From the NCBI GenBank assembly GCA_050330515.1, contig JBHJNU010000003.1:15560-79559 (forward strand): a stretch of DNA of 64,000 nucleotides. Reading direction: 5' to 3'. Of the stretch, positions 40,874 to 61,715 are shown one piece after another; position 1 is the stretch's first letter, and every line of letters starts with the position of its first letter. A model generated the notes under the pieces. It was not told where the DNA came from. It did no database searches and saw nothing but the letters and a program-made list of their open reading frames with translations. The stretch comes from Flavobacteriaceae bacterium (GTDB lineage: Bacteria; Bacteroidota; Bacteroidia; Flavobacteriales; Flavobacteriaceae). The translations under genes and the position numbers were made by a program.

Positions 40874-40898
40874 CCGGGTATGCGACAAGCATGCCCGG
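40874..40898 (+). other. Intergenic hairpin between gldM and gldN
   Basis: CCGGGTATGC-GACAA-GCATGCCCGG, 10 bp with one G-U pair, no U-tract. Confidence 0.55.
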
Positions 40899-40920
40899 TT
40901 ACTTTTAAATGATTAGAAAA

Positions 40921-41823
40921 ATGAATTGGAAGAATGTTTTAGTAATCTCAGCAGTTAGTCTACTACCTGTTTCCTTAATGGCGCAAGCGAACATCTTGAA
41001 CGCGAAGAAGCCGCAGGAAATCGGGGTAAAGACCGAAGCACAAAGAGCGGAGGACAATGATGCTCCCTTAAAGTACGGTTACGTCGATGATCGCGATATC
41101 CTTTGGTCGAAGACCGTTTGGGAGGTGATCGACCTTGACGAGCGCGTGAATTTTCCGATGTACTATCCTACCGATACCATTGATATTGGTGCCGATAGAA
41201 GGTCATTGTTCGACGTGCTAATCAAGAACATCAAAAACGGTAAACTTGAAGACGTTTACGTAGATTCATACTTTACCGAGAAAAGGGTGTTCTCTGAGTT
41301 GGCCGCGACCTTGAAAAAACGTGATACGCTAGAGTACGGGTACGAACAGATCAATGCCGGCGAGGAATTGTCTCCTGAATACGTTGTGGAGCGTGAACTT
41401 TCGGCTGCCGATATCGAAGAGTACCGAATAAAAGGTATCTGGTATTTTGACAAACGTCAAGGAGAGCTGAAATACCGTCTTTTAGGTCTTGCTCCCGTTG
41501 CACCAGACGTTAACTTTATCGACGATGAGTCTATGGATCCAAATGATGCCAAAGTTGAACTTTTCTGGGTGTGGTACCCAGGTGCCAGGCAGGTGTTACA
41601 CGAAGCGAAGGTTTTTAACCAACGTAATTCGGCGCAGCCCATATCTTTTGACATGTTGTTGAACGCAAGAAGGTTCCAAGGCACCATTTACAGAGAAGAT
41701 AACGTTCATGGAGACCGCAAGGTAACCGACTATATTGCAGACAATGCTTTGTTCCAATTGCTTGAGGCCAACAGAATTCAAGAGGTCATCAGAGATAGGG
41801 AACAAGATATGTGGAGTTATTAA
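40921..41823 (+). CDS. gldN: Gliding motility/T9SS protein GldN (PorN)
   Basis: DILWSKTVWEVIDLDERVNFPMYYP and IKGIWYFDKRQGELKYRLLG. Start is 40909 or 40921. Confidence 0.96.
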   Translation: MNWKNVLVISAVSLLPVSLMAQANILNAKKPQEIGVKTEAQRAEDNDAPLKYGYVDDRDILWSKTVWEVIDLDERVNFPMYYPTDTIDIGADRRSLFDVLIKNIKNGKLEDVYVDSYFTEKRVFSELAATLKKRDTLEYGYEQINAGEELSPEYVVERELSAADIEEYRIKGIWYFDKRQGELKYRLLGLAPVAPDVNFIDDESMDPNDAKVELFWVWYPGARQVLHEAKVFNQRNSAQPISFDMLLNARRFQGTIYREDNVHGDRKVTDYIADNALFQLLEANRIQEVIRDREQDMWSY

Positions 41824-43440: not shown

Positions 43441-43577
43441 TTGCAAAACTTTGCACAAAGGTACGTTATATCGGCGTTTTTAACCGTAACATTGGTCACA
43501 CATCACGTTTCAGGTTTTTGAAGTTTGAGGTTGCCGAACCTGACCCTGAAGCTAAAGAAATTATAAACCATTTTAGA

Positions 43578-45664: not shown

Positions 45665-46555
45665 ATGAAAAAGCCACTTCAAATAATAGTATTCCTTTTC
45701 GCTTTTCAAGGTTCATTTGCCCAGGTTCCGGTGAAGGAGAAACAGGTACTGATTGATCTTTACAATAGTACAAATGGCTCGAACTGGACCGAAAGGTGGG
45801 ATTTGTCTAAACCTTTATCAACCTGGAATGGTGTTCAACTGGAGGATAACCATATTGTATCCCTTAACCTAATGAACAATGGTCTAGATGGAGTTCTACC
45901 AAGCTCCATTCATAATCTTAAACGGCTACGGGTGTTGAACTTGGCGTTCAATGCTATTCATGGAGATTTGCCCGAGAATATGGTGCTATTACAAAACTTA
46001 GTTGTCCTAAAGTTGGGAAAGAACCAGATAGAAGGTAGTATTCCTGAAACTATTGGTAACTTAAAGCAGCTAGAGGTTCTAGACCTTTATAGTAATAAGA
46101 TTTCAGGTAACCTACCAAGAAGTCTAGGGGCAATAAAAAGGTTGAAGGTAATTTCGATTTCTGATAATGCCATCGATGGTGCACTACCTGAGGAACTTGG
46201 AAATTTAAAATCCTTGGAACGTTTAGAACTTGCCGACAATAGGATGGAAGGTACCATACCCGAGGCCATAGGTAGCCTTTCTAATTTGAATATCCTTGTA
46301 TTGGCAGAGAACAGGTTAACGGGGAACTTTCCCACCACTGTATTTACATTACCCAAGTTAAGGGTATTGCAGCTACAGAATAATGATTTCGACAAGGCCC
46401 ATTTAAAGAAAAGTGTTCCGATACAGACAGATTTGGCACTTTTTGAGTTCGAGGATACCGTTTTTGATATAGAATCAAAGGCCTTTAAAAAATTATACTC
46501 GAAAAGTGATGTAAGAATGGCCGACACGAAATTTGATGATGATAATGACAATTAG
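45665..46555 (+). CDS. Exported plant-specific-type LRR protein 1 (8 LRRs)
   Basis: Signal peptide ending SFA-Q, N-cap LYNSTNG..W...W.GV, 24-aa repeats LxxLxLxxNxLxGxIP, tail RMADTKFDDDNDN. Confidence 0.9.
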   Translation: MKKPLQIIVFLFAFQGSFAQVPVKEKQVLIDLYNSTNGSNWTERWDLSKPLSTWNGVQLEDNHIVSLNLMNNGLDGVLPSSIHNLKRLRVLNLAFNAIHGDLPENMVLLQNLVVLKLGKNQIEGSIPETIGNLKQLEVLDLYSNKISGNLPRSLGAIKRLKVISISDNAIDGALPEELGNLKSLERLELADNRMEGTIPEAIGSLSNLNILVLAENRLTGNFPTTVFTLPKLRVLQLQNNDFDKAHLKKSVPIQTDLALFEFEDTVFDIESKAFKKLYSKSDVRMADTKFDDDNDN

Positions 46556-46564
46556 TAGATACCT

Positions 46565-47464
46565 ATGAACTTAGAGAACCCATCTTATAAAATACGAATA
46601 TTTTTACTGACCCTTTTCTGTCCCTTCACCTATGGTATGTTGGTTTTTGGGCAGGTATCGGATCAAGAAAAAAAAGTACTCTTAGAACTTTACCATGCAA
46701 CTAGCGGTAAAGACTGGAACAATGTTTGGAATCTGAACCAGCCCCCATCTACTTGGTACGGGGTGAAGGTCGAAGACAACAAAGTAACGGAGCTTAACCT
46801 CTTCAGAAACAATCTATCAGGAGTTCTACCTGAAAGTATAGGCCAGCTTGAACATTTGAAGCACTTGAATCTAGCTTTCAATTCAATAACCGGTTTACTG
46901 CCAAAGGATATCGTCAATTTGTCAAATTTAAAGGTGTTGAAATTGGAAATGAACCGTATCAAAGGAGCACTTCCTGATGATATCGGCAAAATGGGAAATT
47001 TAGAGGAATTTTCCGCATTCAATAATTTTTTGGAAGGGTCTATTCCTGAAAGTCTTGGTTCGATCAAGACCTTGCGCATTTTGAATTTATCAAGCAATAA
47101 TTTGAACGGTTTGATTCCCAAATCTTTGGGAAGTCTAGAAAAATTAGAAAGTCTAGGTCTTTTTGAGAATGTTTTAGAAGGTTCAATTCCCCCCGAAATC
47201 GGAAAGTTGAGTAGGTTAAAAGAACTGGTTTTGGCCAATAATCAGCTGGGCGGGGCTATACCGGCTGAATTTGGCCAATTGGCCAGTTTAAAGGTCTTGC
47301 AGATTCAGAATAACAAATTCGATTCATTCAAGAATCTTGAATATGTGAACCTAAATGCCCTACTTGCGTTCGACTTTGATAGAGACCGTGCTACGGATTT
47401 TAAGCACATAGATTTGAACAAAACAAGAATGGCCGACACGAAGTTCGACGATAACGATAATTGA
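46565..47464 (+). CDS. Exported plant-specific-type LRR protein 2 (8 LRRs)
   Basis: Same architecture; tail RMADTKFDDNDN. Confidence 0.9.
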   Translation: MNLENPSYKIRIFLLTLFCPFTYGMLVFGQVSDQEKKVLLELYHATSGKDWNNVWNLNQPPSTWYGVKVEDNKVTELNLFRNNLSGVLPESIGQLEHLKHLNLAFNSITGLLPKDIVNLSNLKVLKLEMNRIKGALPDDIGKMGNLEEFSAFNNFLEGSIPESLGSIKTLRILNLSSNNLNGLIPKSLGSLEKLESLGLFENVLEGSIPPEIGKLSRLKELVLANNQLGGAIPAEFGQLASLKVLQIQNNKFDSFKNLEYVNLNALLAFDFDRDRATDFKHIDLNKTRMADTKFDDNDN

Positions 47465-47525
47465 TATTCAAGTTTCTAAAATAAAGGGAAAATAAATTCT
47501 TTTTTCTAGTTAGTAGTTTGGTTTT

Positions 47526-47558
47526 AGGGGGTGCGAGAGCATCCCCTATTGGTTTTTT
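47526..47558 (+). terminator. Terminator-like hairpin after LRR protein 2
   Basis: AGGGGGTGC-GAGA-GCATCCCCT (GNRA loop) followed by ATTGGTTTTTT. Confidence 0.65.
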
Positions 47559-47608
47559 ATCGAAGAATGCAAGAAATCTTACTTTACTTATCAGAAAACA
47601 GCAAAATG

Positions 47609-47661
47609 TACGTTAGAAATATACAAAACGTACGAAACGTCCTCACGAATTATACGTTAAA
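47609..47661 (+). promoter_or_regulatory. Three direct repeats with an exact 22-bp period upstream of LRR protein 3 (LytTR-type site candidate)
   Basis: TACGTTAGA (47609), TACGAAACG (47631) and TACGTTAAA (47653). Confidence 0.45.
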
Positions 47662-47718
47662 ACAAGTTTGTCATGCTGTTCTTAATGGCGATGGTACTAT
47701 TTATTGAAATAAAGCCGA

Positions 47719-48600
47719 ATGAAAAAAACATTATTTTTTTTTAACCTGCTGCTCCTTCTTTTCTATTTCGGTTCTGCAAGTGCGCAGATAAGCAAAAAAG
47801 AGAAAAACGCGCTACTGGATCTTTATGAAGCTACCCATGGCGAATTATGGACGATACCTTGGAATTTGAATGTACCTGTCAGCGAATGGCACGGTGTTCA
47901 AATCGACAAGGATCGCGTGGTAGGGCTACGGTTATACAAGAATAATTTAACAGGAACCCTACCGCATAGCCTAAAAAAACTTGAACATCTTGAGGTACTT
48001 GATCTTGGCTTTAATAAGCTTACAGGGCATCTACCCGAAACGCTAACCGAGCTTACCACTTTGAAGGTGTTAAAACTTGAAATGAACCAATTCAAGGGTG
48101 GGCTACCGTCCGACATGTCCAATTGGGTACATCTTCAAGAACTTTCCTTGTTCAATAATTTTTTAGATGGGAGCATTCCAGAAAGTATTGGTAAAGCTCA
48201 AGACTTGGAGGTTATTAATTTTTCAAGTAATATGCTATCAGGAAGGCTTCCAAAAAGTATGGAAGATTTAACGAAACTAAGGAGCTTTGGTATTATGGGC
48301 AACCAATTAGACGGCACCATCGATTTTAGTTTTTCAAAAATGACCAACTTGTCTGAATTGGTCCTGTCTCACAATCATTTTGAAGGACCGTTACCTGAAA
48401 GCATCGCAACATTGAAACAACTTAAATTCGTTCAATTTCAAGGTAATAAATTTGATTCGTTCAGGGGACTCGAAATGATGCAGAGCCTACATCTTTCGGC
48501 TTTTGATAGCGATAATAAGCAGTTGGACAGAAGATATGGCAAAGTAGATTTCAGCCGAACACGGTTGGCGGAAACGAAGTTTTCAGAGGAAGATAACTAA
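47719..48600 (+). CDS. Exported plant-specific-type LRR protein 3 (8 LRRs)
   Basis: Signal peptide ending ASA-Q; same architecture; tail RLAETKFSEEDN. Confidence 0.9.
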   Translation: MKKTLFFFNLLLLLFYFGSASAQISKKEKNALLDLYEATHGELWTIPWNLNVPVSEWHGVQIDKDRVVGLRLYKNNLTGTLPHSLKKLEHLEVLDLGFNKLTGHLPETLTELTTLKVLKLEMNQFKGGLPSDMSNWVHLQELSLFNNFLDGSIPESIGKAQDLEVINFSSNMLSGRLPKSMEDLTKLRSFGIMGNQLDGTIDFSFSKMTNLSELVLSHNHFEGPLPESIATLKQLKFVQFQGNKFDSFRGLEMMQSLHLSAFDSDNKQLDRRYGKVDFSRTRLAETKFSEEDN

Positions 48601-49591: not shown

Positions 49592-50656
49592 ATGAATTTC
49601 AAATCTAAAAAAGCAGTTTTTACCTTTTTTGTTTTAGGAGGATTACTTCAGCTCACCCATTCCTGCAAATCAACTACTACAACCGTACAGAAAGAGGCAG
49701 GACCCGAAAAATCAGTAGAGAAAACCGGTCGAATTGAACAAGGTAAGGCCATGGCAACCCAGACCGGCTACACCGAAACGGTGCCTGGCGCAGGGTTATC
49801 GTTTGAAATGGTGGCCATACCAGAAGGTAAGTTCATGATGGGCAGCCCCGATTCGGAAATTGGCCGAAAGGCCGATGAAGGCCCGCAAAGGGAGGTAGGG
49901 TTAGACGCTTTTTACATGGCAAAATACGAACTCACATGGGAGCTTTTTGAACTCTTTTTTAAACAGAACAAAGAGCTGTTCGTAACATTGGAAGATGATA
50001 AGGTCATAAAAATAGACGCGATAACAAGACCAAGTCCGCCTTATGAAGACCCTTCTTATGGCATGGGTAAAGATGGGTATCCTGCCGTTAGCATGTCGGC
50101 CTATTCTGCTTTGGTCTTTTGTAAATGGCTGAGTACGGTAACCGGCAAATTCTATAGACTTCCAACCGAAGCCGAATGGGAATACGCCGCACGCGCTGGA
50201 AGCAACACAGCCTACAGCTTTGGCGATACTACTGAAAGTATTGATGATTATGCGGTGTACTACAAAAATTCGAACAATGTGTATGCGAAGGTAGGAAGCA
50301 AAAAGCCCAATGCTTGGGGACTTTACGATATGCATGGAAATGTTGGCGAATGGACATTGGATGAATACAAGGAAGATGCTTATACAACCTTAGAATCTAA
50401 AAGCCCATGGATGATACCGCAGGTAATTCATCCACGTGTTTACAGAGGTGGATCTTGGGACGATGACGCTGGTAAACTGCGCGCTGCAGCTAGAACGGGG
50501 TCAAGTTTGAAACAACAAAAGCGCGACCCTCAGATTCCTAAAAGTTTTTGGTGGTTCACAGATTCCAACTATGTAGGCTTCCGGTTGGTAAGTCCGGTAG
50601 TGCAGCCAAGCCAAGAAGATCAAAAGAAGTTTTGGCAACAGGTTTTAGACGAATAA
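49592..50656 (+). CDS. SUMF1/FGE-sulfatase-fold lipoprotein lacking the FGE catalytic cysteines
   Basis: Lipobox THSC, RLPTEAEWEYAARAG, GLYDMHGNVGEW and RGGSWDD. Probable start 49592. Confidence 0.88.
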   Translation: MNFKSKKAVFTFFVLGGLLQLTHSCKSTTTTVQKEAGPEKSVEKTGRIEQGKAMATQTGYTETVPGAGLSFEMVAIPEGKFMMGSPDSEIGRKADEGPQREVGLDAFYMAKYELTWELFELFFKQNKELFVTLEDDKVIKIDAITRPSPPYEDPSYGMGKDGYPAVSMSAYSALVFCKWLSTVTGKFYRLPTEAEWEYAARAGSNTAYSFGDTTESIDDYAVYYKNSNNVYAKVGSKKPNAWGLYDMHGNVGEWTLDEYKEDAYTTLESKSPWMIPQVIHPRVYRGGSWDDDAGKLRAAARTGSSLKQQKRDPQIPKSFWWFTDSNYVGFRLVSPVVQPSQEDQKKFWQQVLDE

Positions 50657-50689
50657 TAACGGCGTAACAGCACATTTTTAAATCAAGGC

Positions 50690-51217
50690 ATGAAGAAAAT
50701 AATGGTTTTATTTTTAGCCTTTGTCGCTTTTGGCTCGGCACAGGAAACGTATAGGTTGGCGGATAAAAGCTCCCTGACCATCAGCGGTTCGTCTACGGTT
50801 CATGATTGGACCGTATCGGCCAATGCAATGAACGGAACCCTTAGCGCGGCGAAAAACACCCCGAAAGAGATCACTTTTGAAGTTGCGGTAGCAGATATTC
50901 AAAGCGAGCGTGGCCCAACAATGGATAATAAGATGCATTCCGCACTTAAAAGAGCGGAGCATCCGAAAATAACTTTTACCCTGAACGAGGTAAAAGGCAC
51001 ATCTATTTTGGTCGGAACACTCAGAATTGCGGGAGTCGAAAAGCAGGTTGACCTAGAAACTGAGATTACTTCCTTGGCGAATGGATTGGCACTAAAGGGG
51101 GAAACCAAGATTATTCTGCAAGATTATGGTATCGAGCCACCAACGGCTATGTTCGGTCAGATTATAGTGGGCGACGAGGTAAGCGTAAAGTTTGACCTGG
51201 TTTTTGCCTCCCTGTAA
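50690..51217 (+). CDS. YceI family lipid/isoprenoid-binding protein, exported
   Basis: Signal peptide, ISGSSTVHDW, HPKITF, GTLRIAGV and DYGIEPP. Confidence 0.88.
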   Translation: MKKIMVLFLAFVAFGSAQETYRLADKSSLTISGSSTVHDWTVSANAMNGTLSAAKNTPKEITFEVAVADIQSERGPTMDNKMHSALKRAEHPKITFTLNEVKGTSILVGTLRIAGVEKQVDLETEITSLANGLALKGETKIILQDYGIEPPTAMFGQIIVGDEVSVKFDLVFASL

Positions 51218-51328
51218 CTATTGGTTTGGTGTAGAACTCCTTTTTGCTGCTTGACATGTTGCAGGGCCGTTTTGAGTTTTATAAACTTAAAATTAGTATC
51301 TTAGAAAATTAGATCGGGTGTAATCGCT

Positions 51329-53668
51329 ATGAAGAACAAGATCTTGCTTTTAGGTATTCTTGGGGTATTGACCATGCTGATATGGGCCTTGACCTCAGGC
51401 AGTTTTACGAGTAGGAGTGATGAGTATGCAAGTGTAAAGACACCCGATATCATCGACTACAATTTCCATATCAAACCGCTACTTTCTGATAATTGTTATA
51501 AATGCCATGGGCCGGATGCCAATAAACGTAAAGCCGGTTTGCGTTTGGATATGGAATCAGATGCTTTTTTAGAATTGCCCGAGAACCCCGGTAGCTATGC
51601 ATTGGTTCCTGGGAAACCTAACCAGAGTGAGTTATATAAACGGTTGATCACCGAGGAAGCCTCGCAGGTAATGCCGCCACCTGATTCGCAGTTGAGTTTA
51701 AGCCCATATGAAAAGGAACTTATCAAAAAATGGATCCAGCAGGGCGCCAAATTCGACAAGCATTGGGCGTTCAAATCCCCTGAAAAAAAAGAACCCCCCA
51801 AGACACAACAAGTAGATTGGGCGCAGAATGAAATAGATGCTTTTATACTGGGAAAGTTAGAGGAAAACGGTTTACAACCTTCCCCAAAAGCTTTAAAAGA
51901 AGTACTTATCCGTCGCATGGCACTTGATCTAACAGCGCTACCCCCATCTTCGGAAATCATTCAAAAATTCGCATCCTTAGAAACTATAGACTATGCAACG
52001 GTCATCGACGAACTTATGGCAACCAAGGCCTATGGGGAGCGAATGACCCAAGCGTGGCTCGATGTAGCCCGTTACGCCGATTCGCATGGCTACCAAGATG
52101 ATAGCTACCGTACCATGTGGCCTTGGCGCGATTGGGTAATTCATGCGTTCAATGAGAATCTGCCCTATGATGAATTCATAACCTGGCAACTCGCGGGCGA
52201 TTTGCTGCCCAATGCCACACCAGAGCAGGTTTTGGCTACGGGTTTCAATCGCAACCACCCCATTACCCAAGAAGGTGGGGTTATACATGAAGAGTATCTT
52301 TCCTATTACGTCACCGATAGAACCAATACCTTGGGCAAGGGCATCCTGGGTCTGACCCTTGAATGTGCGAAATGTCATGATCACAAATACGATGCAATTT
52401 CTCAAGAAGACTATTACCAAGTCTATGCTTTCTTCAACAATGTGGATGAAAAGGGATTGCAAATGGATGCCGTACAGGCCGCCAACCAAAAGTTTTTTGC
52501 AGATCCGCCGTACATGACGGTTACCGATAAGGAAACAGAGGGTCTCCTTTCCTTTATAAACAAACCCGAGGGTGAAACCGTTAAGATCATGGTCATGAAC
52601 GATTCACTGCCAAGGCAGACCTATATTTTGAATAGGGGCGATTACGATAACTTGGGCGATAGCGTTGGTGTAGGTGTGCCCGAAGCCATTTTGTCTTTTT
52701 CTTCGGATTTTCCTAAAAACCGTTTAGGACTTGCAAAATGGGTCACAAGCGAAAAAAACCCTTTGACCGCCAGGGTTTTCGTGAACCGAATCTGGGCGAT
52801 GCTCTTCGGAAATGGATTGGTGAAAACGGATGAGGATTTCGGTGTACAGGGAAGCTTACCGACCCATCCGGAGTTATTGGATTGGCTGGCCGTAGATTTT
52901 GTTGAAAACGGATGGGATATTAGATACCTACTCAAAAAAATTATGCTGTCGGCTACCTATCAACAAAGCTCTGAGCTTACCCCTGAACTTATTAAGGCAG
53001 ATCCCGAGAACAGGTTGTTGGCCCGGGCGCAACGTTTTCGAATGAGCGGTGAAATGATCCGTGACTATATTTTGGCGACAAGTGGTTTGCTCAATCGCGA
53101 AATAGGAGGCCCGAGCGTAAGACCCTACCAACCGGCAGGCCTTTGGGAAGAAACAAACGCGGGCGGAAACCGGGGTACACTGACAACCTACGTGCCTGAT
53201 ACTGGCGATAAGTTGTATCGCCGTTCGTTGTATACTTTTTGGAAACGCACCTTGCCACCCGCGAGCATGTCCATTTTCGATGCACCTACCCGTGATCTCT
53301 GTGAGGTACGGCGGCAAAAGACCAATACGCCCTTACAGGCCTTGGCCTTACAAAATGATATTCAGGTTCTGGAAGCCGCCCGTGTGCTGGCGCAAAATAT
53401 CGTGGCGGGTTCAGACAATGATAGCACGGCCGTAAAAGAAGTTTTCGAAAAAATTTTGGTGCGTACCCCCAAGGCGGAAGAATTATTGGTGCTTGAAAGT
53501 TACTATCATGACGCGATCGAAAAATTCAACAACGGAACGGAGGACGCCGAAAAATTGGTTGCCCTGGGCGAATATCAAAAGTTGGAAACCGATCCCGTAA
53601 AGACTGCGGCCTTGATGTTGACCGCCCAGATCATCTATAATCTTGACGAAACGATAACTAAAGAATAG
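51329..53668 (+). CDS. Planctomycete cytochrome c + DUF1549 + DUF1553 domain protein
   Basis: N-terminal TM helix; CYKCH and CAKCH heme-c motifs; WLDVARYADSHG, NPLTARVFVNRIW, PTHPELLDWLA, YRRSLYTFWKRT and TPLQALAL. Confidence 0.92.
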   Translation: MKNKILLLGILGVLTMLIWALTSGSFTSRSDEYASVKTPDIIDYNFHIKPLLSDNCYKCHGPDANKRKAGLRLDMESDAFLELPENPGSYALVPGKPNQSELYKRLITEEASQVMPPPDSQLSLSPYEKELIKKWIQQGAKFDKHWAFKSPEKKEPPKTQQVDWAQNEIDAFILGKLEENGLQPSPKALKEVLIRRMALDLTALPPSSEIIQKFASLETIDYATVIDELMATKAYGERMTQAWLDVARYADSHGYQDDSYRTMWPWRDWVIHAFNENLPYDEFITWQLAGDLLPNATPEQVLATGFNRNHPITQEGGVIHEEYLSYYVTDRTNTLGKGILGLTLECAKCHDHKYDAISQEDYYQVYAFFNNVDEKGLQMDAVQAANQKFFADPPYMTVTDKETEGLLSFINKPEGETVKIMVMNDSLPRQTYILNRGDYDNLGDSVGVGVPEAILSFSSDFPKNRLGLAKWVTSEKNPLTARVFVNRIWAMLFGNGLVKTDEDFGVQGSLPTHPELLDWLAVDFVENGWDIRYLLKKIMLSATYQQSSELTPELIKADPENRLLARAQRFRMSGEMIRDYILATSGLLNREIGGPSVRPYQPAGLWEETNAGGNRGTLTTYVPDTGDKLYRRSLYTFWKRTLPPASMSIFDAPTRDLCEVRRQKTNTPLQALALQNDIQVLEAARVLAQNIVAGSDNDSTAVKEVFEKILVRTPKAEELLVLESYYHDAIEKFNNGTEDAEKLVALGEYQKLETDPVKTAALMLTAQIIYNLDETITKE

Positions 53669-53673
53669 GAAGC

Positions 53674-55137
53674 ATGGAGGAAGAAAGAAAGGACCCCAAT
53701 GAAAACCCCCTAAAGGTCAATCGACGCCATTTTTTCTCGCAGTTGAGCGTAGGTATCGGGTCTTTGGCATTAGGATCCCTATTGATACCCGATTTATTCA
53801 AAGGTGGTGCGGAAGCATTGGCAAGTCACCAACTGGGTATTCCGCATTTTGCCCCAAAAGCGAAGCGGGTCATCTATTTGTTCCAGGCAGGGGCACCTTC
53901 GCAATTCGAGACCTTTGAGCATAAACCCACGCTAAGGAAACGTAAGGGGGAAGACCTACCGGATTCCGTTCGTAACGGACAAAGACTAACGGGCATGACC
54001 GCCGGGCAAGAGAAATTCCCGCTAATGCCACCGAAGGTCAATTTTCAGCAACATGGCGAAGCACGTACATGGATCAGTGATTTCTTTCCCCATATGGCCA
54101 AGATTGTCGATGATATTTGTGTGATTCGCAGTTTGCATACCGAGGCGATCAATCATGATCCCGCGATTACATTTTTCCAAACGGGAAGCCAACAATCGGG
54201 TCGCCCCAGTATGGGCTCTTGGATGAGTTATGGACTGGGAAGCGAGAATAAAAACCTACCCTCCTTCGTGGTCTTGACCTCGCGAGGAAAGGGCAATAGC
54301 CAAGGACTATATTCAAAATTATGGTCTAGCGGTTTTTTAGATTCCAAGCACCAAGGGGTACTATTGAGGGCCGGCAAGAATCCCGTACTGTATTTGAACG
54401 ACCCGGAAGGCATTTCACGTTCCGACAAAAGACATTTGTTGGATCAGGTATCCTCTCTCAATAAATTACATCATGTTGAAACGGGGGATGACGAAATCGA
54501 ATCGCGCATCGCCCAATATGAAATGGCGTACCGTATGCAGATGTCGGTGCCCGATGTAATGGATATTTCGAAAGAACCACAATCGATCATCGATCTCTAT
54601 GGCGAAGATTGCCAAGTGCCCGGTACGTATGCCGCCAATGCACTACAAGCAAGACGGCTTGCCGAAAATGGGGTTCGCTTTATACAGTTGTACCATCAAG
54701 GTTGGGACCAACATGGTAATTTGCATAATGAAATGGAAGGGCAGGCCAAAGATGTTGACAAGGCCTCCGCGGCCCTGGTATTGGACCTGAAGCAGCGCGG
54801 CATGTTAGAAGATACACTTGTGGTTTGGGGAGGCGAATTCGGTCGCTCGAACTATGCACAAGGAAAATTCGATGAAAATAATTATGGCCGTGACCATCAT
54901 CCGAGAGCCTTTAGCATTTGGATGGCAGGTGGTGGGATAAAACCCGGAATGAACTATGGCCAAACAGATGAATTTGGCTATAATATTGTCGAAAATCCTG
55001 TTCATATTAATGATTTCCATGCTACAATGATGCATGTAATGGGGCTGAACCACGAACAAATGATCTACAAATACCAAGGCAGGCGTTTTCGATTGACCGA
55101 TGTTGCTGGCAATGTGGTTAACGATATCTTGGTATAG
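53674..55137 (+). CDS. DUF1501 family protein with a Tat signal
   Basis: NRRHFF twin-arginine motif, AKRVIYLFQAGAPSQ, WDQHG, WGGEFGR and GRDHHP. Confidence 0.92.
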   Translation: MEEERKDPNENPLKVNRRHFFSQLSVGIGSLALGSLLIPDLFKGGAEALASHQLGIPHFAPKAKRVIYLFQAGAPSQFETFEHKPTLRKRKGEDLPDSVRNGQRLTGMTAGQEKFPLMPPKVNFQQHGEARTWISDFFPHMAKIVDDICVIRSLHTEAINHDPAITFFQTGSQQSGRPSMGSWMSYGLGSENKNLPSFVVLTSRGKGNSQGLYSKLWSSGFLDSKHQGVLLRAGKNPVLYLNDPEGISRSDKRHLLDQVSSLNKLHHVETGDDEIESRIAQYEMAYRMQMSVPDVMDISKEPQSIIDLYGEDCQVPGTYAANALQARRLAENGVRFIQLYHQGWDQHGNLHNEMEGQAKDVDKASAALVLDLKQRGMLEDTLVVWGGEFGRSNYAQGKFDENNYGRDHHPRAFSIWMAGGGIKPGMNYGQTDEFGYNIVENPVHINDFHATMMHVMGLNHEQMIYKYQGRRFRLTDVAGNVVNDILV

Positions 55138-55140
55138 TTT

Positions 55141-56571
55141 ATGGCTTCAAACCCTAAAAATGGCTGGGCCGATTATGCGATTTTTGGGCTGTCGGTATTC
55201 TTGATTTTCTGTTTGATTTTTGAATCGCACATCGCCTTGCCTACACTGGTGGCATGGTTGGGGCGATGGCATCCTATGGTGCTCCACTTTCCGATCGTAC
55301 TCTTGTTGATCGCCATTTTTTTAGGTTTTACCGGGAAACAAATCCCAAGGGTATTGCTCACAACAGCCGTCCTGTCCGCCTTGATAACCGCCATATCGGG
55401 ATTCTTTTTGGCTACGGGATCGGGTACAAGGGGCAATCTGCTCTTCTGGCACCAATGGCTAGGTGCCGCCACCGCTTTGATCGCCGCACTATGGTATTAC
55501 GCGGAGGGTAGGGGTATGGCAAGGTCTAGCTACGCCAAAAGCCTACCAATGGGGTTGGCGGTTTTAATAGGATTCACGGGCCATTATGGTGGAATGGTGA
55601 CCCACGGTGAAGAGTACTTGGCATTTCCAACAAATAGTACAGACCATGTAATGCCAGAAAACCCATTGATCTATACAGATGTCGTAGCTCAAATTTTAGA
55701 TAATCATTGCGTAAAATGCCATAACCAGAATAAATTGAAAGGTGAATTGTTGATGACCAATATGGCAGGGCTCTTAAAAGGCGGTGAAAGCGGCAAGACC
55801 CTTATTCCTGGAAATTATGAGGAAAGTGAGTTGATCGTTCGCATGCACCTTCCCTTAGAAGATGAAAAGCACATGCCGCCCGAAGGCGAAACACCCTTAT
55901 CGCAGAACCAGATCAAGATTCTAGAGCGTTGGATCGCCCTAGGAGCTTCTGATACCTTGAAGTTGAGCCACTTGGATAATAATGAGCCGTTGGTCGCACA
56001 TTTAAATAGTTTGATAAAACCAGATCCGAGCGAAAAATGGAAGCTCTTGCCCGCCGTTGCCGATAGCACGATTAGCCGATTGAGTTCTGATTACCTAACC
56101 ATTCGCCGATTGGCCGGCGGGGCAAATGCGTTAAGCATCAATATGTATATGCCACCGGCATATGACCCAAGTTTGATCACGGGTTTAAAACCGCTCGCCA
56201 AAAATATAATCGAAATGGATGTTAGTGGTCTACCCTTAGGTCAAGAAGAGATGAACCTGATAGCTTCCTGTCAAAACTTAGAATGGCTAGAAGTCGATAG
56301 AACGCCCATTACCGATGTGGAAGCGGACACCCTAAAGAGTTTGTCCAACTTGAGAATACTGAAGATTTATGATACAAAAATTGGAAACAAAAGTATTCCC
56401 GTCTTAAAGAAGATACAATCCCTTCGGCAGGTATATCTTTGGAACACGTCAATTTCTCCAGATGTTTTGAATACCCTTAAAAAAGAAAATCCAACTCTTT
56501 TTGTAGATACAGGGATCGATCAAGAACTGCAGACTTTGTTTACTGCAAAAGATTCCATTCCGAAAATCTAG
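55141..56571 (+). CDS. DUF2231-like membrane domain + cytochrome c + LRR protein
   Basis: HPMVLHFPIVLL and about 4-5 TM helices, CVKCH heme motif with HMPP distal Met, C-terminal LRRs (LEWLEV, LRILKI, LRQVYLWNT). Confidence 0.85.
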   Translation: MASNPKNGWADYAIFGLSVFLIFCLIFESHIALPTLVAWLGRWHPMVLHFPIVLLLIAIFLGFTGKQIPRVLLTTAVLSALITAISGFFLATGSGTRGNLLFWHQWLGAATALIAALWYYAEGRGMARSSYAKSLPMGLAVLIGFTGHYGGMVTHGEEYLAFPTNSTDHVMPENPLIYTDVVAQILDNHCVKCHNQNKLKGELLMTNMAGLLKGGESGKTLIPGNYEESELIVRMHLPLEDEKHMPPEGETPLSQNQIKILERWIALGASDTLKLSHLDNNEPLVAHLNSLIKPDPSEKWKLLPAVADSTISRLSSDYLTIRRLAGGANALSINMYMPPAYDPSLITGLKPLAKNIIEMDVSGLPLGQEEMNLIASCQNLEWLEVDRTPITDVEADTLKSLSNLRILKIYDTKIGNKSIPVLKKIQSLRQVYLWNTSISPDVLNTLKKENPTLFVDTGIDQELQTLFTAKDSIPKI

Positions 56572-56611
56572 CCTATATTTAAGCCTAATAGTAAATGAAA
56601 TACTTTGTAAT

Positions 56612-57388
56612 ATGAAGTTCGATCTCAATGGAAAAACGGCGATAGTCACAGGTGGTGGCAGTGGTATTGGTAAGGCCATTGCAAAGGCCTTGGCTGAAAA
56701 TGGAGCCAAAGTTCATATTTTTGATCTGAAACAAGAGGCTGCCGATGACGTTGCCAAAGAAATCAACGGCGAGGGTGGTTCTGCGATTGCCCATTCGTGC
56801 AATGTGGCCGTACAAAAGGAAGTTGAGGACAAAGTGTCGCAAATAAGCGCATCAGGATCAATAGACATATTGATCAACAATGCCGGAATCGCCCACATCG
56901 GAAATGTTGAGCAAACTACCGAAGACGATTTAGACCGAATTTATAAAGTTAACGTGAAAGGGGTCTACAATTGTGTTCGTGCGGTACTTACGAATATGAA
57001 GGAAAAGGGAGGCGTTATTTTGAATATGTCGTCTGTAGCAGCATCCGTCGGTATTCAAAACAGATTTGCCTATTCGATGTCAAAAGGTGCGGTCTTGACC
57101 ATGACCTACTCTTTGGCAAAAGATTATTTAGCATATAACATTAGATGTAACAGTATTTCGCCGGGCCGGGTGCACACCCCATTTGTAGATGGTTACCTTA
57201 AGGCCAATTTTCCTGGGGAAGAGGAAAAAATGTTCGATAAACTATCGAAAACACAGCCCATAGGACGAATGGGAAAACCAGAGGAAATAGCGAACCTGGC
57301 ATTGTACCTATGTTCAGATGAAGCCTCTTTTATTACCGGAACTGATTTTCCGATAGATGGTGGATTTATAAAACTAAACGGTAATTAG
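56612..57388 (+). CDS. SDR family oxidoreductase (2-keto-3-deoxy sugar-acid dehydrogenase-like)
   Basis: TGGGSGIG, NNAG, YSMSK and PGRVHTP. Confidence 0.9.
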   Translation: MKFDLNGKTAIVTGGGSGIGKAIAKALAENGAKVHIFDLKQEAADDVAKEINGEGGSAIAHSCNVAVQKEVEDKVSQISASGSIDILINNAGIAHIGNVEQTTEDDLDRIYKVNVKGVYNCVRAVLTNMKEKGGVILNMSSVAASVGIQNRFAYSMSKGAVLTMTYSLAKDYLAYNIRCNSISPGRVHTPFVDGYLKANFPGEEEKMFDKLSKTQPIGRMGKPEEIANLALYLCSDEASFITGTDFPIDGGFIKLNGN

Positions 57389-57414
57389 TATACTTAAAGA
57401 AGAAAGACCTAACT

Positions 57415-58272
57415 ATGAAACTAATACGATTTGGAGCCGTAGGAAACGAAAGACCAGGGGTTCAATTAGAAGATGGAACACGACTTGATGTCTCGGCATT
57501 TGGCCAAGATTATAATGAAGATTTCTTTGGAGGTGATGGCTTGCCAAGACTTTGGGCCTGGTTGGCGTCGAATGCCGGTAGCTGCCCTAAAGTCGACGCG
57601 GGTATTCGGCTAGGACCACCTTTGTGCCGCCCATCAAAAATAATCTGTATAGGGCTGAATTATGCCAAGCATGCCCAAGAATCGGGAATGGACATCCCCA
57701 AAGAACCCGTTCTGTTCTTTAAGGCAACATCGGCGATAGTGGGGCCGAATGACGATGTGATCATCCCGAAAGGAAGTAAAAAAACAGATTGGGAGGTCGA
57801 ATTGGCAATTGTTATCGGCAAGAAGGCATCGTATGTATCTGAAGAAGATGCGATGTCGCATATTGCCGGTTATGTGCTTCACAACGATTATAGCGAACGT
57901 GAGTTTCAGATCGAGCGCAGTGGGCAATGGGTAAAGGGCAAGAGCTGTGATACATTTGCGCCTTTAGGCCCTTTTATAGCGACTACCGACGAAATTACCG
58001 ACCCGCATAACTTGAATCTTTGGTTAAAACTGAATGGTGAAAAACTTCAAGATAGCAATACGTCCGATTTTGTATTCGATATTCCAACATCGATAAGCTA
58101 TATCAGTCAGTTCATGACGCTGCTACCGGGTGATGTGATCTCTACCGGTACCCCTTTCGGGGTGGGCTTAGGCTTCAATCCACCAAGGTATTTAAAGGCT
58201 GGTGATGTTGTTGAACTGGGTATCGACGGTTTGGGCAGTTCTAAACAGGTGGCAAGAAAATATGCCGAATAG
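57415..58272 (+). CDS. Fumarylacetoacetate hydrolase family protein
   Basis: KIICIGLNYAKH, DWEVELA, HNDYSER, KGKSCDTF and GDVISTGTP. Confidence 0.93.
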   Translation: MKLIRFGAVGNERPGVQLEDGTRLDVSAFGQDYNEDFFGGDGLPRLWAWLASNAGSCPKVDAGIRLGPPLCRPSKIICIGLNYAKHAQESGMDIPKEPVLFFKATSAIVGPNDDVIIPKGSKKTDWEVELAIVIGKKASYVSEEDAMSHIAGYVLHNDYSEREFQIERSGQWVKGKSCDTFAPLGPFIATTDEITDPHNLNLWLKLNGEKLQDSNTSDFVFDIPTSISYISQFMTLLPGDVISTGTPFGVGLGFNPPRYLKAGDVVELGIDGLGSSKQVARKYAE

Positions 58273-58466: not shown

Positions 58467-58931
58467 ATGGTGACATGGAAAGATGTAATCAGTTTTTGCG
58501 TAAATGGTAATCCAAAACCGGATCGAAGAGTGGAAAGAACCGAAGACGAATGGCGGCAAATGCTAACTCCTGAACAATATAGGGTAACCCGAAAAAAAGG
58601 AACCGAAGCACCACATACCGGCGCTTTGTGCGGTATTCATGAAGCGGGTAAGTACCATTGTGTATGTTGTGATGCCCCTTTGTTCGATTCTACGATCAAG
58701 TTCGAATCTGGAACAGGTTGGCCCAGTTTTACCCAGCCCATCAAGGAAAATGCCATTCAATACATAAAGGATAGTTCTTTCGGTATGGTACGGGTAGAAG
58801 TACTATGTAATACATGCGATGCCCATCAGGGCCATGTTTTTCCTGATGGTCCTGAACCAAGTGGCCTGCGCTATTGTATCAATTCGGCGTCGATGACCTT
58901 GCAAATACAACCGGCGATCAACGAAGAATAG
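58467..58931 (+). CDS. msrB: Peptide-methionine (R)-S-oxide reductase
   Basis: Two Zn-binding CxxC motifs, GTGWPSF, GHVFPDGP and RYCINSA. Confidence 0.96.
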   Translation: MVTWKDVISFCVNGNPKPDRRVERTEDEWRQMLTPEQYRVTRKKGTEAPHTGALCGIHEAGKYHCVCCDAPLFDSTIKFESGTGWPSFTQPIKENAIQYIKDSSFGMVRVEVLCNTCDAHQGHVFPDGPEPSGLRYCINSASMTLQIQPAINEE

Positions 58932-58959
58932 CAATCACATCGAGATCAACACCTAGCTA

Positions 58960-60588
58960 GTGGTTAAACATCATACTTTTGTGGCTAACTTTGTAGCCAA
59001 CAAAAAGAAGGGCGGTATTTTGGTATCAAAACTGAACATACAAGATAGATTCAACATAGAGCTTCCTGCAGATCCTATTATTGCAAATGGCAGAAGGCAA
59101 GTGGCCAAGGCCTGTTTTTCGTTTGTTAACCCCAAGAGAACGGCAGATCCTAAAATACTCCATGTTTCCCCTGAGATGCTCTCGGCGATCGGTTTGTCTG
59201 AAGAAGATGCCATGGGCGATGGGTTTTTAAAGGTATTTACGGGTAATGAAATCCTTCCGAACACCAATCCGTACGCAATGTGCTATGGTGGGCACCAGTT
59301 TGGCAATTGGGCCGGACAATTAGGAGATGGCCGGGCCATTAATTTGGCCGAAGTGGAGCACGAAGGAAAGATATGGGCGTTGCAGTTAAAGGGTGCCGGC
59401 GAAACCCCTTATTCAAGAACGGCTGATGGTTTGGCGGTCTTGCGATCGTCGATACGCGAGTACCTGTGCAGTGAGGCGATGTACCACTTGGGCGTGCCTA
59501 CTACTAGGGCATTGTCTTTAGCGCTTTCGGGCGATCAGGTATTACGTGATGTAATGTATAATGGTAATCCCGCCTATGAAAAGGGCGCCATCGTTTGTCG
59601 GGCAGCTCCGTCTTTCTTGCGTTTCGGTAATTATGAGATTTTTGCTTCCCGGGAAGACAACCAAACCTTGAAGACCTTGGTCGATTACACCATCAAACAT
59701 CATTATTCACATTTAGGGGAGCCTGGCAAAGAAACTTATTGTAACTTTTTAAAGGAGGTTGTAGAGAATAGTTTAGAGATGGTAATCCATTGGCAGCGTG
59801 TGGGTTTTGTGCACGGTGTGATGAATACCGATAATATGTCGATTCTAGGATTGACCATAGATTATGGCCCCTACGGTTGGTTGGAAGGCTATGACCATGG
59901 ATGGACACCAAATACGACCGACAATGCGCACAAGCGCTATCGCTACGGCACTCAGCCCCAAATTGTACTGTGGAATTTGTATAAACTCGCCAATGCACTG
60001 TATCCGCTCATTGAAGAAACGGAGCCTTTGGTCGCCGTTTTAAATTCTTATCAAGAGCGTGTCGATCAAGCCTACATTGAAATGATGAAGTCTAAAATAG
60101 GACTTTATGAACACGATGCCACCGACCCCGATCTAATTACCGCCCTCGAAATTGCATTACAACGCTCAGAAACTGATATGACCCTTTTCTTTAGGTTATT
60201 GGCCAATGTAGAAATAGAGGGAAATGGCGATATGCTTCAAATTTGTAACGCGGCTTTTTATTTTCCAGGGGAAATAAATGGAAAAATTGAAGCGGAATGG
60301 AAACTGTGGTTTTCCAGATATATACTCCGGTTGAAAAAAGAGAAAAGAGTCGATGCGGAGCGCAAGAAAGCCATGAATGCGGTAAACCCCAAATACGTAT
60401 TGCGAAATTATATGGCGCAATTGGCCATCGATGCTGCCGATGTGGGAGATTATGGGTTAATCGATGAGCTCTTCAAGGTACTTAAAAAACCGTACGACGA
60501 GCAGCCTGAAAATGAAAGGTGGTTCGCCAAGCGACCCGATTGGGCAAGGAGTAAAATTGGCTGTTCAATGCTGTCATGTAGTTCTTGA
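58960..60588 (+). CDS. selO: SelO/YdiU protein adenylyltransferase (pseudokinase AMPylase)
   Basis: GQLGDGRA, QLKGAG, RSSIREYLCSEAM, HGVMNTDN, IDYGP and C-terminal CSMLSCSS. The true start may be about 20 codons later. Confidence 0.95.
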   Translation: MVKHHTFVANFVANKKKGGILVSKLNIQDRFNIELPADPIIANGRRQVAKACFSFVNPKRTADPKILHVSPEMLSAIGLSEEDAMGDGFLKVFTGNEILPNTNPYAMCYGGHQFGNWAGQLGDGRAINLAEVEHEGKIWALQLKGAGETPYSRTADGLAVLRSSIREYLCSEAMYHLGVPTTRALSLALSGDQVLRDVMYNGNPAYEKGAIVCRAAPSFLRFGNYEIFASREDNQTLKTLVDYTIKHHYSHLGEPGKETYCNFLKEVVENSLEMVIHWQRVGFVHGVMNTDNMSILGLTIDYGPYGWLEGYDHGWTPNTTDNAHKRYRYGTQPQIVLWNLYKLANALYPLIEETEPLVAVLNSYQERVDQAYIEMMKSKIGLYEHDATDPDLITALEIALQRSETDMTLFFRLLANVEIEGNGDMLQICNAAFYFPGEINGKIEAEWKLWFSRYILRLKKEKRVDAERKKAMNAVNPKYVLRNYMAQLAIDAADVGDYGLIDELFKVLKKPYDEQPENERWFAKRPDWARSKIGCSMLSCSS

Positions 60589-60683
60589 AAAAATTGTTAA
60601 TCAAGTATTTAGGAGCTTTTTTTTGGAAATCGCGAAAAAGTAAGGTCATAAAGTCAAGAAGAATAATTAGTAAAAAAAGATAA

Positions 60684-61178
60684 ATGGAAAATTATAAAAA
60701 AGCATATCTAGCTGGTGGGTGTTTCTGGGGAATGGAAGAGCTTTTCAGAATTCGACCGGGAGTGGTGGATACCGAAGTGGGCTACATTGGAGGGAAAAAT
60801 GAAAGTCCAACCTATAAAAATCATCCCGGACATGCAGAAGGACTTGAAATTGTGTATGATCCGAACAAAACGTCGTTCAGGCATTTACTGGATTATTTTT
60901 TTAGAATCCATAATCCGACTACCGTAGATCGCCAAGGAAATGACATTGGGTCAAGCTATCGATCTGCCATATTTTTTCAGAACCAGCAAGAAAAGGAAGA
61001 TTCGCAAGAAATGATAAAAATTGTAAACGATTCAAAAAAATGGGACGCACCCCTTGCAACGACCCTAGAGCCGTATACCACTTTTTGGCCTGCCGAACCC
61101 GAGCATCAAGATTACCTGCTCAGAAAACCCAATGGATACACCTGTCACTTCGAAAGATTCGCTGAAAGCTTTATTTAG
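60684..61178 (+). CDS. msrA: Peptide-methionine (S)-S-oxide reductase
   Basis: GGCFWG, GYIGG, HAEG, RQGNDIGSSYRSAIF, AEPEHQDY and GYTCH. Confidence 0.96.
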   Translation: MENYKKAYLAGGCFWGMEELFRIRPGVVDTEVGYIGGKNESPTYKNHPGHAEGLEIVYDPNKTSFRHLLDYFFRIHNPTTVDRQGNDIGSSYRSAIFFQNQQEKEDSQEMIKIVNDSKKWDAPLATTLEPYTTFWPAEPEHQDYLLRKPNGYTCHFERFAESFI

Positions 61179-61183
61179 ATACT

Positions 61184-61191
61184 GGAGGTGA
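61184..61191 (+). promoter_or_regulatory. Strong Shine-Dalgarno sequence (GGAGGTGA) before the second msrA
   Basis: 8-nt anti-SD complement 5 nt upstream of the ATG at 61197. Confidence 0.45.
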
Positions 61192-61196
61192 TTTGA

Positions 61197-61715
61197 ATGG
61201 AAGAAAAGCAATCGGCCAAAATAGGTTTCGGAGGCGGATGTCATTGGTGTACGGAGGCCGTATTTCAACATGTGCTGGGTGTTCAGGGTGTTGAACAGGG
61301 TTGGATCGCCTCTGTGGGTTCTGATGCCGCATTTTCGGAGGCGGTAATCGTATATTTCGACCCAGGGATAGTTCCATTGGCGGTGCTTGTTGAAATTCAT
61401 CTACGCACGCATCAAAGTACAAAGAGGCATAGCATGCGAACTAAATATCGATCGGCTATTTATATTTTTTTCGATGGGCAGCGGGAAGAGGTCATGGCAC
61501 TATTAAAGGTGCTACAAAGCCAATTTGAAGAAGAATTGATTACCAAGGTAATGCCGTTTCAGGCTTTTAAGGGATCGGGGGAAGAATTGCGAAACTACTA
61601 TTTGCAGAACCCGCATAAACCTTTTTGCGAAACGTATATCAACCCCAAGCTGAGCATGCTGATAGAGAAATATGCCGCATTTACAGCTTCAGCAAAGTTG
61701 GCTCATTTAAGATAA
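61197..61715 (+). CDS. Divergent second MsrA-family protein
   Basis: GGGCHWCTEAVF, EAVIVYFDP, YRSAIY and NYYLQNPHKPFCETYINPKL. Confidence 0.85.
   Translation: MEEKQSAKIGFGGGCHWCTEAVFQHVLGVQGVEQGWIASVGSDAAFSEAVIVYFDPGIVPLAVLVEIHLRTHQSTKRHSMRTKYRSAIYIFFDGQREEVMALLKVLQSQFEEELITKVMPFQAFKGSGEELRNYYLQNPHKPFCETYINPKLSMLIEKYAAFTASAKLAHLR

Follow-up and report, generated by a model that had tools for sequence, protein, structure and literature searches.

The window is a stretch of 64,000 nucleotides (nt) from the genome of a Flavobacteriaceae bacterium (GenBank assembly GCA_050330515.1, contig JBHJNU010000003.1, positions 15,560 to 79,559 of the forward strand), and positions 49532/49592–58272 of it hold seven open reading frames (ORFs), all on the + strand and separated by successive gaps of 33, 111, 5, 3, 40 and 26 nt (Table 1). 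The original prediction, made from the sequence alone, had described seven co-oriented genes with gaps of 5, 3, 40 and 26 nt across the last five, which the ORF coordinates match, and its domain calls agree gene by gene with our Pfam search. Its grouping of all seven genes as one module does not hold, as only the trio that encodes a PSCyt1-PSCyt2-PSD1 protein of 779 amino acids (aa), a DUF1501 protein exported by the twin-arginine translocation (Tat) pathway, and a membrane cytochrome with leucine-rich repeats (LRRs) is conserved together. We read the region as three separate units, namely this trio, which would act as a catalytic/electron-transfer module, a pair of FGE-like and YceI neighbours upstream, and a pair of SDR and FAH genes downstream, and give this reading a probability of roughly 55%. 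Domain calls were made with Pfam and equivalog-type calls with NCBIfam, whereas folds were taken from AlphaFold models that were searched with Foldseek against the PDB. The source genome, labelled G000, comprises 3.45 Mb in 147 contigs and is 94% complete, and its nearest named relatives are Maribacter, Ulvibacterium, Zobellia, Kriegella and Eudoraea; other G numbers denote genomes of relatives, and L numbers denote loci.

The conserved unit is the trio, because its order is kept across orthologues, distant groups and a wider genome collection. The order PSCyt/PSD1, DUF1501, membrane cytochrome-LRR is found in 12 of the 12 orthologous loci from other genera where the contig allows, with intergenic gaps of 3–5 nt in those checked, and DUF1501 is preceded by a PSCyt/PSD1 gene at all orthologous loci whose contig extends far enough. 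Within the window itself, the gaps of 5 and 3 nt suggest that the trio is probably translationally coupled. In a family sample of 121 genomes, 28 of which have a DUF1501 match at a threshold of E ≤ 1e-50, the DUF1501 orthologues of 12 other genera are 80–91% identical; those of Cytophagales and Chitinophagaceae are 68–75% identical, and the same trio order persists in a group at 61–66% identity. Trios in Chitinophagaceae, Cyclobacteriaceae and another Bacteroidota lineage have flanks unrelated to those of the window (outside the family these encode a ribonucleotide reductase, an enolase-family protein other than FucD, and an FAD/TPP enzyme pair). Among 62 loci sampled from the genome collection that encode a relative of the membrane cytochrome and show 5 kb or more of upstream sequence, 55 have DUF1501 in the same orientation no more than 3.5 kb ahead of the cytochrome gene. 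The window trio is a member of the most conserved orthologue group of the PSCyt/PSD1-DUF1501 system, which is long known and uncharacterised.

Table 1. Features of the window and paralogous modules elsewhere in the source genome.
Feature	Location	Coordinates	Strand	Match or remark
FGE/SUMF1-fold lipoprotein-like protein	window	49592..50656	+	Pfam FGE-sulfatase 2e-43
YceI-like periplasmic protein with signal peptide	window	50690..51217	+	Pfam YceI 5.8e-18
Core gene 1: PSCyt1-PSCyt2(DUF1549)-PSD1(DUF1553), 779 aa	window	51329..53668	+	PSCyt1 1.5e-15, PSCyt2 6e-81, PSD1 2e-102
Core gene 2: Tat-exported DUF1501 protein, 487 aa	window	53674..55137	+	Pfam DUF1501 1e-155
Core gene 3: DUF2231-type bundle + PSCyt1 + LRR membrane protein, 476 aa	window	55141..56571	+	Pfam PSCyt1 6e-11; LRR below cut-off
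Conserved 11-mer CTATATTTAAG	window	56573..56583	+	1 base past core gene 3 stop codon
SDR, probable 2-keto-3-deoxy-L-fuconate 4-dehydrogenase ('SDRa')	window	56612..57388	+	Pfam adh_short_C2 5e-64
FAH-family hydrolase, probable 2,4-diketo-3-deoxy-L-fuconate hydrolase	window	57415..58272	+	Pfam FAA_hydrolase 1e-73
topA	window	32926..35490
gldK/L/M/N	window	37023..41823
ABC-F ATPase	window	43518..45488		ahead of the LRR genes
Three tandem paralogous LRR-protein genes	window	45665..48600	+	296, 299 and 293 aa
msrB, selO (YdiU protein adenylyltransferase), msrA, second divergent MsrA-like gene	window	58467..61715	+
Paralogous module	contig C95 (L008)			accessory: NHL beta-propeller, FMN-dependent dehydrogenase
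Paralogous module	contig C56 (L009)			NHL propeller, Gfo/Idh/MocA oxidoreductase; upstream UxaC and DUF7133-cytochrome c protein
Paralogous module	contig C25 (L010)			Gfo/Idh/MocA genes, two sulfatases, full-scoring FGE-domain gene (Pfam 244 bits)
Paralogous module	contig C32 (L011)			xylose-isomerase-like TIM barrel (AP_endonuc_2), Na/sulfate-type symporter

The 779-aa protein, in which PSCyt1, PSCyt2 and PSD1 all score above the Pfam cut-offs, carries CYKCH at residue 56 and CAKCH at residue 346, both invariant in 16 homologues. Its PSCyt1 part shows a weak likeness to the dihaem cytochrome FoxE (E 1e-3), and sequence and profile searches of the PDB gave no relative for the PSCyt2 and PSD1 parts. 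Together with CVKCH in the 476-aa protein, these motifs bear out the three CxxCH haem-c motifs that had been noted over two proteins. The accompanying description of both cytochromes as membrane-anchored is sound for the polytopic 476-aa protein but uncertain for the 779-aa protein, whose one N-terminal hydrophobic segment may be either a signal peptide or an anchor. The DUF1501 protein has the Tat signal expected of it, with the arginine pair at residues 17–18 and F20 of NRRHFF invariant in 23 homologues. From these predicted signals and topologies, all three core proteins face the periplasm and jointly present three c-haem motifs and a His-rich membrane domain.

By fold, the AlphaFold model of DUF1501 is that of an alkaline phosphatase (AP) superfamily member. 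The model is of moderate confidence (predicted local distance difference test, pLDDT, 62.8; predicted TM-score, pTM, 0.70), and Foldseek returns 97 PDB matches at E ≤ 1e-3 for it, headed by S1 sulfatases and alkaline phosphatase at E values of 2e-6 to 1e-4, a TM-score of ~0.33 and ~10% identity. Sequence and profile searches of the PDB gave no relative, Pfam gives DUF1501 alone with no Sulfatase match, and a weak profile–profile alignment (probability 10%) aligns 'GGEFGR' of DUF1501 with the 'TSDHG' block of sulfatases. GAPSQ closes the first beta-strand, and the N-terminal DD metal pair is absent. Orthologues and paralogues alike keep RR17-18, G73xPSQ77, T156, N160-H161, R177PS, W344DxH347, E388 and R406DHH409 without change, whereas C149 is only nearly invariant. 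A formylglycine sulfatase is ruled out, as the protein is without the C/S-x-P/A-x-R motif and the N-terminal DD ligands; the absence of the sulfatase CxPxR motif had been pointed out before, and no [CS]x[PA]xR motif occurs in any of the seven proteins.

The membrane cytochrome is modelled with a pLDDT of 75.9 as helices 5-26, 44-63, 70-93, 99-123 and 130-154, followed by a cytochrome c domain and an LRR solenoid. The five helices are predicted to span the membrane, the last four forming a DUF2231-type bundle. This DUF2231 label is reached by way of paralogues that share all five invariant His with the window protein (E 8e-9, 1.7e-8 and 2e-4 for three of them, and 40 bits for the N-terminal domain of one alone), whereas the window protein itself, at 18.2 bits, falls below the Pfam cut-off of 26.4. 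One paralogue also has a weak match to DUF4079 (E 1e-3), and the matches in a PDB fold search cover the LRR part alone. The His-bearing polytopic domain of the original prediction (HPMVLH, WHQW, GHYGG..H) is present and invariant in 25 homologues, the invariant residues being H44, H49, H104, H148, H155 and C190xxCH194 (CVKCH at 190), with the five His at the ends of helices 44-63, 99-123 and 130-154. With the K/R-rich loops (64–70 and 120–133) on the inner side and the cytochrome c domain necessarily in the periplasm, the predicted topology puts all five His on the periplasmic face. Pairs of His near both membrane faces, of the b561 or Ni_hydr_CYTB type, are not seen in this topology, and the cluster would suit one haem b or a surface-near metal site rather than a two-haem transmembrane wire. 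A quinone-linked system leading from the Tat enzyme over the cytochromes to a membrane haem domain had been proposed; a transmembrane haem relay is not indicated with five His at one predicted face.

The mechanism that we prefer for the trio, at about one chance in three, would have the DUF1501 and PSCyt2/PSD1 proteins act as a catalytic pair on a small periplasmic substrate, with the LRR domain docking this pair to the membrane protein. The c-haems would carry electrons towards or away from a His-ligated cofactor (one haem b or metal) on the periplasmic face of the DUF2231 bundle, and that cofactor would connect onward to the respiratory chain. We infer the LRR docking, the DUF2231 cofactor, and the direction and purpose of the electron flow alike. 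A rival reading, in which the haems carry no respiratory electrons, takes its model from the dihaem protein MauG, which matures methylamine dehydrogenase. The two-haem PSCyt/PSD1 protein could likewise be a partner-specific maturase or redox activator of DUF1501, which would then be a plain sulfate- or phosphate-ester hydrolase acting on a glycan, with the LRR membrane protein as a tether. The strict 1:1 pairing of PSCyt/PSD1 with DUF1501, in the five paralogous modules and in all relatives examined, is in line with such a role, as are the hydrolase-type fold of DUF1501, the LamG-type domain on three paralogous PSCyt proteins, the location of one module among sulfatases, and the His cluster on a single membrane face, which is ill-suited to transmembrane electron transfer. 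However, Tat export suggests that DUF1501 is folded and cofactor-loaded before it reaches the periplasm, neither a conserved Cys nor the kind of Trp pair that marks a cofactor formed by oxidation was seen in it (C149 falling short of invariance), and an activator would have no need of the third conserved cytochrome c, on the membrane protein. We consider a maturation role distinctly unlikely and retain the catalytic pair as the preferred mechanism.

The trio is not alone in its genome. The 'compact single copy' of the original prediction is replaced by five full DUF1501 genes in G000, each adjoining a PSCyt/PSD1 gene, and four of the five pairs have a DUF2231-PSCyt1-LRR partner of their own. 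The accessory genes differ among the paralogous modules (Table 1). The LamG-type domain of the three paralogous PSCyt proteins is a sugar-binding one, whereas Pfam finds no carbohydrate-binding domain in the window-type PSCyt protein.

Some of the accessory genes are inserted within the modules. The AP_endonuc_2 gene of the C32-type module (L011 15133-16011) lies between the DUF1501 and membrane cytochrome genes, and this TIM-barrel insert is also present at L113, L129, L133, L140, L153, L154, L157, L162 and L165, in Chitinophagaceae, Sphingobacteriaceae, Pedobacter, Segetibacter and others; in Dyadobacter the gene comes after the cytochrome gene. An NHL/six-bladed beta-propeller gene stands between DUF1501 and membrane cytochrome at L008 13307-14389, L009 10784-11857 and many other loci, and is a feature of the module group at 57–66% identity; the window-type trio is without it. 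On C56, a protein with DUF7133, HEAT and cytochrome c domains ('PVC-type membrane-bound dehydrogenase'; L009 768-3035) is encoded beside the glucuronate isomerase UxaC, 3 kb upstream of the paralogous PSCyt/DUF1501 module.

The oxidative L-fucose/L-rhamnose route employs a 2-keto-3-deoxy acid 4-dehydrogenase of the SDR family and then a 2,4-diketo-3-deoxy acid hydrolase of the FAH family (LRA5/LRA6-type), and the products of 2,4-diketo-3-deoxy-L-fuconate hydrolase are pyruvate and L-lactate. This non-phosphorylative route is known from work on Xanthomonas, Sphingomonas, Azotobacter and Burkholderia. In relatives of the source genome, the usual context is a cluster of AraC, FucD (enolase family), SDR, FAH, SDR, an MFS permease (FucP) and an FMN-dependent lactate dehydrogenase (LldD), with an Amidohydro_2 lactonase and GH29/GH95 fucosidases close by. 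The fucose cluster of G001 has, between FucD and FAH, an SDR that shares 66% identity with the window SDR, and orthologues of the window FAH (66–81% identical) sit in FucD-SDR-FAH-SDR-MFS-FMN_dh clusters with GH29/GH95 genes. The FAH protein matches NCBIfam NF053535 (2,4-didehydro-3-deoxy-L-rhamnonate hydrolase) over its full length with 339 bits, the cut-off being 500. This gene context supports the placing of SDR and FAH late in a non-phosphorylative deoxy-sugar route by the original prediction, and the two are probably the last two steps of the oxidative L-fucose route; as neither carries an export signal, these would be cytoplasmic.

The remaining fucose genes, which form a single cluster in relatives, are scattered in G000. 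AraC and a UxaA-type dehydratase lie on C34 (13360-18906), the lactonase, a second SDR and an MFS permease on C25 (L010 27-3953), adjoining the sulfatase-rich PSCyt-LamG/DUF1501 module, and an FMN-dependent (lactate-type) dehydrogenase on C95 (L008 15789-16952), 10 nt behind the membrane cytochrome gene of that module. FucD of the enolase type is missing from all seven searched genomes that have SDR and FAH at the trio (the genome of L090 was not searched). That the trio supplies the SDR/FAH substrate in place of FucD is nonetheless an unnecessary assumption, since a UxaA-type dehydratase occurs in both genomes examined for one, in G048 at a separate fucose-like locus with AraC, GH29, lactonase, SDR and MFS permease genes, and in G000 with that cluster split between the end of C34 and the start of C25. 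An MR_MLE gene beside the trio at L063 and L064 was considered as a FucD orthologue and ruled out at 26% identity.

The co-occurrence of SDR/FAH with DUF1501 clusters was then counted over ~29 orthologous trio loci, which were placed on a tree of the trio proteins. SDR and FAH lie directly behind the trio at eight loci, those of the window, G048, L090, L091 (Ulvibacterium), L092 (Maribacter algarum), L095, L096 and L108, and SDR alone does so at three, those of G071 (same genus), L093 and L101 (Euzebyella marina); neither gene is at the trio in the other 18. At the position of FAH in the window, the G071 locus has a C-5 cytosine methyltransferase and an HpaII-type restriction endonuclease directly behind SDR (L042 13269-15625), and FAH of G071 is in its FucD cluster, which there is without the first SDR. 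The linked loci are scattered over the tree, six changes being needed of which at least five are forced by well-supported branches, and they cluster no more strongly than shuffled labels. Between membrane cytochrome and SDR, four genera have a gap of 0–6 nt, six loci have 27–48 nt and a further one has 167 nt, and the genes beyond FAH differ at every locus. An initial view based on 12 genera, that the linkage is essentially not conserved, was revised with this wider sample and tree. The linkage holds at the 11 loci and has been lost in roughly two thirds of the lineages. On the basis of these gene arrangements, the link of SDR/FAH with the trio is old and recurrent but optional; the trio and SDR are probably co-transcribed in some genera, and the position behind the trio may give co-expression, which is no proof of a metabolic hand-over.

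The interval between trio and SDR holds the 11-mer CTATATTTAAG, which occurs at the same place, after the membrane cytochrome stop codon, in L092 and L095, which belong to two other genera, and in the shortened form CTATATTTA in L042; at that locus (G071) the complete 11-mer also precedes the PSCyt gene. Only three copies exist in the 3.45-Mb genome G000 (C3, C26, C64). Its sequence is that of a candidate near-consensus Bacteroidetes -7 box (TAnnTTT-like) and it could be an internal promoter for SDR, so a separate transcription start for SDR/FAH is possible in the window. A scan of the region for sigma-70 promoters and terminators gave chance level only, the count of Bacteroidetes -7 motifs in the region was likewise no better than chance, and no Rfam family was found in window 44000-64000.

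Several points weigh against the reading of a catalytic/electron-transfer trio that stands apart from SDR/FAH. The active site of DUF1501 is not readable, as its model is only moderately confident, and the sequence and profile searches of the PDB detected no relative of characterised function for the membrane domain. As AP-superfamily enzymes normally act as hydrolases or transferases and do no redox chemistry, this reading does not explain why three haems should be needed. In gene content, FAH is present in 12 of 13 family genomes with a window-type trio, against 21 of 108 others, and in 9 of 10 further trio genomes, although these counts overstate independence as the genomes are related to one another. 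Because the linkage is old and recurrent, because nearly all trio genomes have FAH, and because the other fucose genes of G000 adjoin two further modules, the window-type trio might be functionally tied to the use of L-fucose (or of a sulfated or otherwise modified 6-deoxyhexose), performing a redox-coupled reaction in the periplasm on a substrate derived from fucose and being co-expressed with SDR/FAH. We regard such a tie as doubtful, if worth keeping in mind.

The stronger proposal is that all seven genes form one catabolic system, in which the periplasmic proteins oxidise or hydrolyse a sugar derivative and the resulting acid is imported and finished by SDR/FAH. It draws on the scattered recurrence of SDR, with or without FAH, behind the trio, at gaps down to 0–6 nt, on the lack of enolase-type FucD in the seven searched genomes, on the near-constant presence of FAH with window-type trios, and on the placement of other G000 fucose genes beside the C25 and C95 modules. 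Yet FAH orthologues, found in 33 of the 121 family genomes, occur in 15 genomes without a DUF1501 match, and in the 18 genomes with both, FAH adjoins a module in two, and in two a different paralogue is found no farther than 10 kb away; in most relatives, FAH and SDR are part of a complete FucD cluster of cytoplasmic enzymes, remote from every module. A UxaA-type dehydratase in a fucose-like cluster accounts for the lack of FucD, orthologous trios outside Flavobacteriaceae have unrelated flanks, the seven-gene cluster contains no transporter gene, and the candidate -7 box lies between trio and SDR in the window. A single pathway is therefore very unlikely in our view. Because FAH occurs without DUF1501 and mostly lies elsewhere, SDR/FAH are better taken as independent of the module product, and the suggestion that the module feeds a sugar acid to them is not upheld, the separate cytoplasmic fucose cluster accounting for their substrate.

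Upstream of the trio, the FGE-like ORF opens at TTG 49532, whereas the ATG start at 49592 gives a signal peptide ending in LTHSC. True FGEs have a catalytic Cys pair in the stretch after a conserved RGGS. In the window protein and six orthologues this stretch reads RGGSWDDDA, with no Cys, and the only Cys residues of the window protein are 45 and 197 (in the TTG-start frame). The window protein thus has the FGE-sulfatase domain but lacks Cys where the catalytic pair would stand, which speaks against a catalytic FGE, and all NCBIfam matches are far below their cut-offs, the best being PvdO with 135 bits against 500. The FGE-like and YceI genes are conserved jointly and precede the trio at around half of the orthologous loci of Flavobacteriaceae, and the FGE-like gene of G106 is located elsewhere. 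Relatives often carry ApbE or an M20 peptidase, placed either in the interval that separates YceI from the trio or, in Arenibacter and G041, behind the membrane cytochrome gene; both are absent from the window locus, where that interval is just 111 nt, and G000 encodes distant homologues of them elsewhere (30% and 34% identity). A flavinylated YceI, prompted by the adjoining ApbE, was dropped, as YceI orthologues carry [DSE]G[ST]ST and not the SGAT type.

Unrelated left-flank genes (DUF2807 on the opposite strand, the LRR proteins and the ABC-F ATPase) are conserved about as widely as FGE-like and YceI, and this pair looks like inherited synteny in part of the Flavobacteriaceae, outside the core. 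The same may be asked of the whole region, in that trio, FGE-YceI and SDR-FAH could share nothing but an inherited gene order, with a trio function unrelated to sugars. Besides the equal conservation of the left flank, the loss of the SDR/FAH link in about two thirds of loci and the lack of a carbohydrate-binding domain in the window-type PSCyt protein would fit this. It is less easily reconciled with an SDR that starts 0–6 nt behind the membrane cytochrome gene in four genera, with an SDR-FAH pair that stays attached although everything beyond FAH is reshuffled in each genome, and with accessory genes of the paralogous modules that are mostly sugar-type oxidoreductases, isomerases and sulfatases. 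We find a shared gene order without further meaning unlikely, and continue to favour three units with a functional trio.

The DUF1501 and PSCyt1/PSCyt2/PSD1 genes were described as a conserved genetic module of Planctomycetes, Verrucomicrobia and Lentisphaerae by Kamneva et al. 2012 (PMC3542564), who stated its function to be unknown, proposed membrane targeting and electron transport, and noted richer clusters with an extra PSCyt1 protein bearing a WD40 protein-interaction repeat. The DUF1501-PSCyt/PSD1 pair is likewise a conserved module of unknown function in He et al. 2017 (PMC5615132). Literature searches found no functional study of DUF1501, DUF1549, DUF1553, DUF1800 or DUF2231. The window trio shares with the module of Planctomycetes and their allies a twin-arginine DUF1501 that adjoins a PSCyt1/PSCyt2/PSD1 protein with CxxCH, in an adjacency conserved across genomes, but it is found in Bacteroidota, its third protein combines DUF2231, PSCyt1 and LRR instead of PSCyt1/WD40, and no Big_2 or LamG insert occurs in its orthologue group, whose conservation is unusually high, with DUF1501 68–75% identical between classes. 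With S1 sulfatases and Escherichia coli alkaline phosphatase (6b0j, 6prm, 3dyc) the DUF1501 model shares the core alpha/beta fold, whereas the window protein is exported by Tat and theirs by Sec, and it has the invariant GxPSQ, T156, NH, WDxH and RDHH. The oxidative L-fucose route has the same succession of SDR and FAH, but in the window and seven other genomes these are detached from the rest of the pathway and lie behind the trio. In Sox thiosulfate oxidation, the dihaem cytochrome SoxAX occurs with Tat-exported SoxB, a dimetal phosphoesterase-type enzyme. As a loose analogy, the trio may resemble this case of a periplasmic dihaem cytochrome working with a Tat-exported metallohydrolase, although there is no sequence or fold relation and no SoxYZ-type carrier at the window locus.

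To our knowledge, DUF1501 and PSCyt/PSD1 proteins, which number thousands in Planctomycetota, Verrucomicrobiota and Bacteroidota, have had no function assigned since they were named in 2004–2012. The present analysis delimits the minimal conserved unit to three genes with no sugar-binding insert and tells incidental from recurring neighbours, which makes the window trio valuable as a well-delimited and experimentally approachable example of a known, uncharacterised system. Cultivable carriers in which the trio is probably co-transcribed with fucose-pathway enzymes include Maribacter algarum, Ulvibacterium and Euzebyella marina, and the trio itself is also present in Zobellia. Were the tie to fucose true, it would give these very large families their first substrate context.

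Of the surrounding genes listed in Table 1, the left flank of ABC-F, LRR and DUF2807 genes also occurs in Maribacter algarum and two uncultured Flavobacteriaceae. The msrB-selO-msrA run behind FAH, which is not beside FAH in any relative examined, resembles an oxidative-damage repair cluster.

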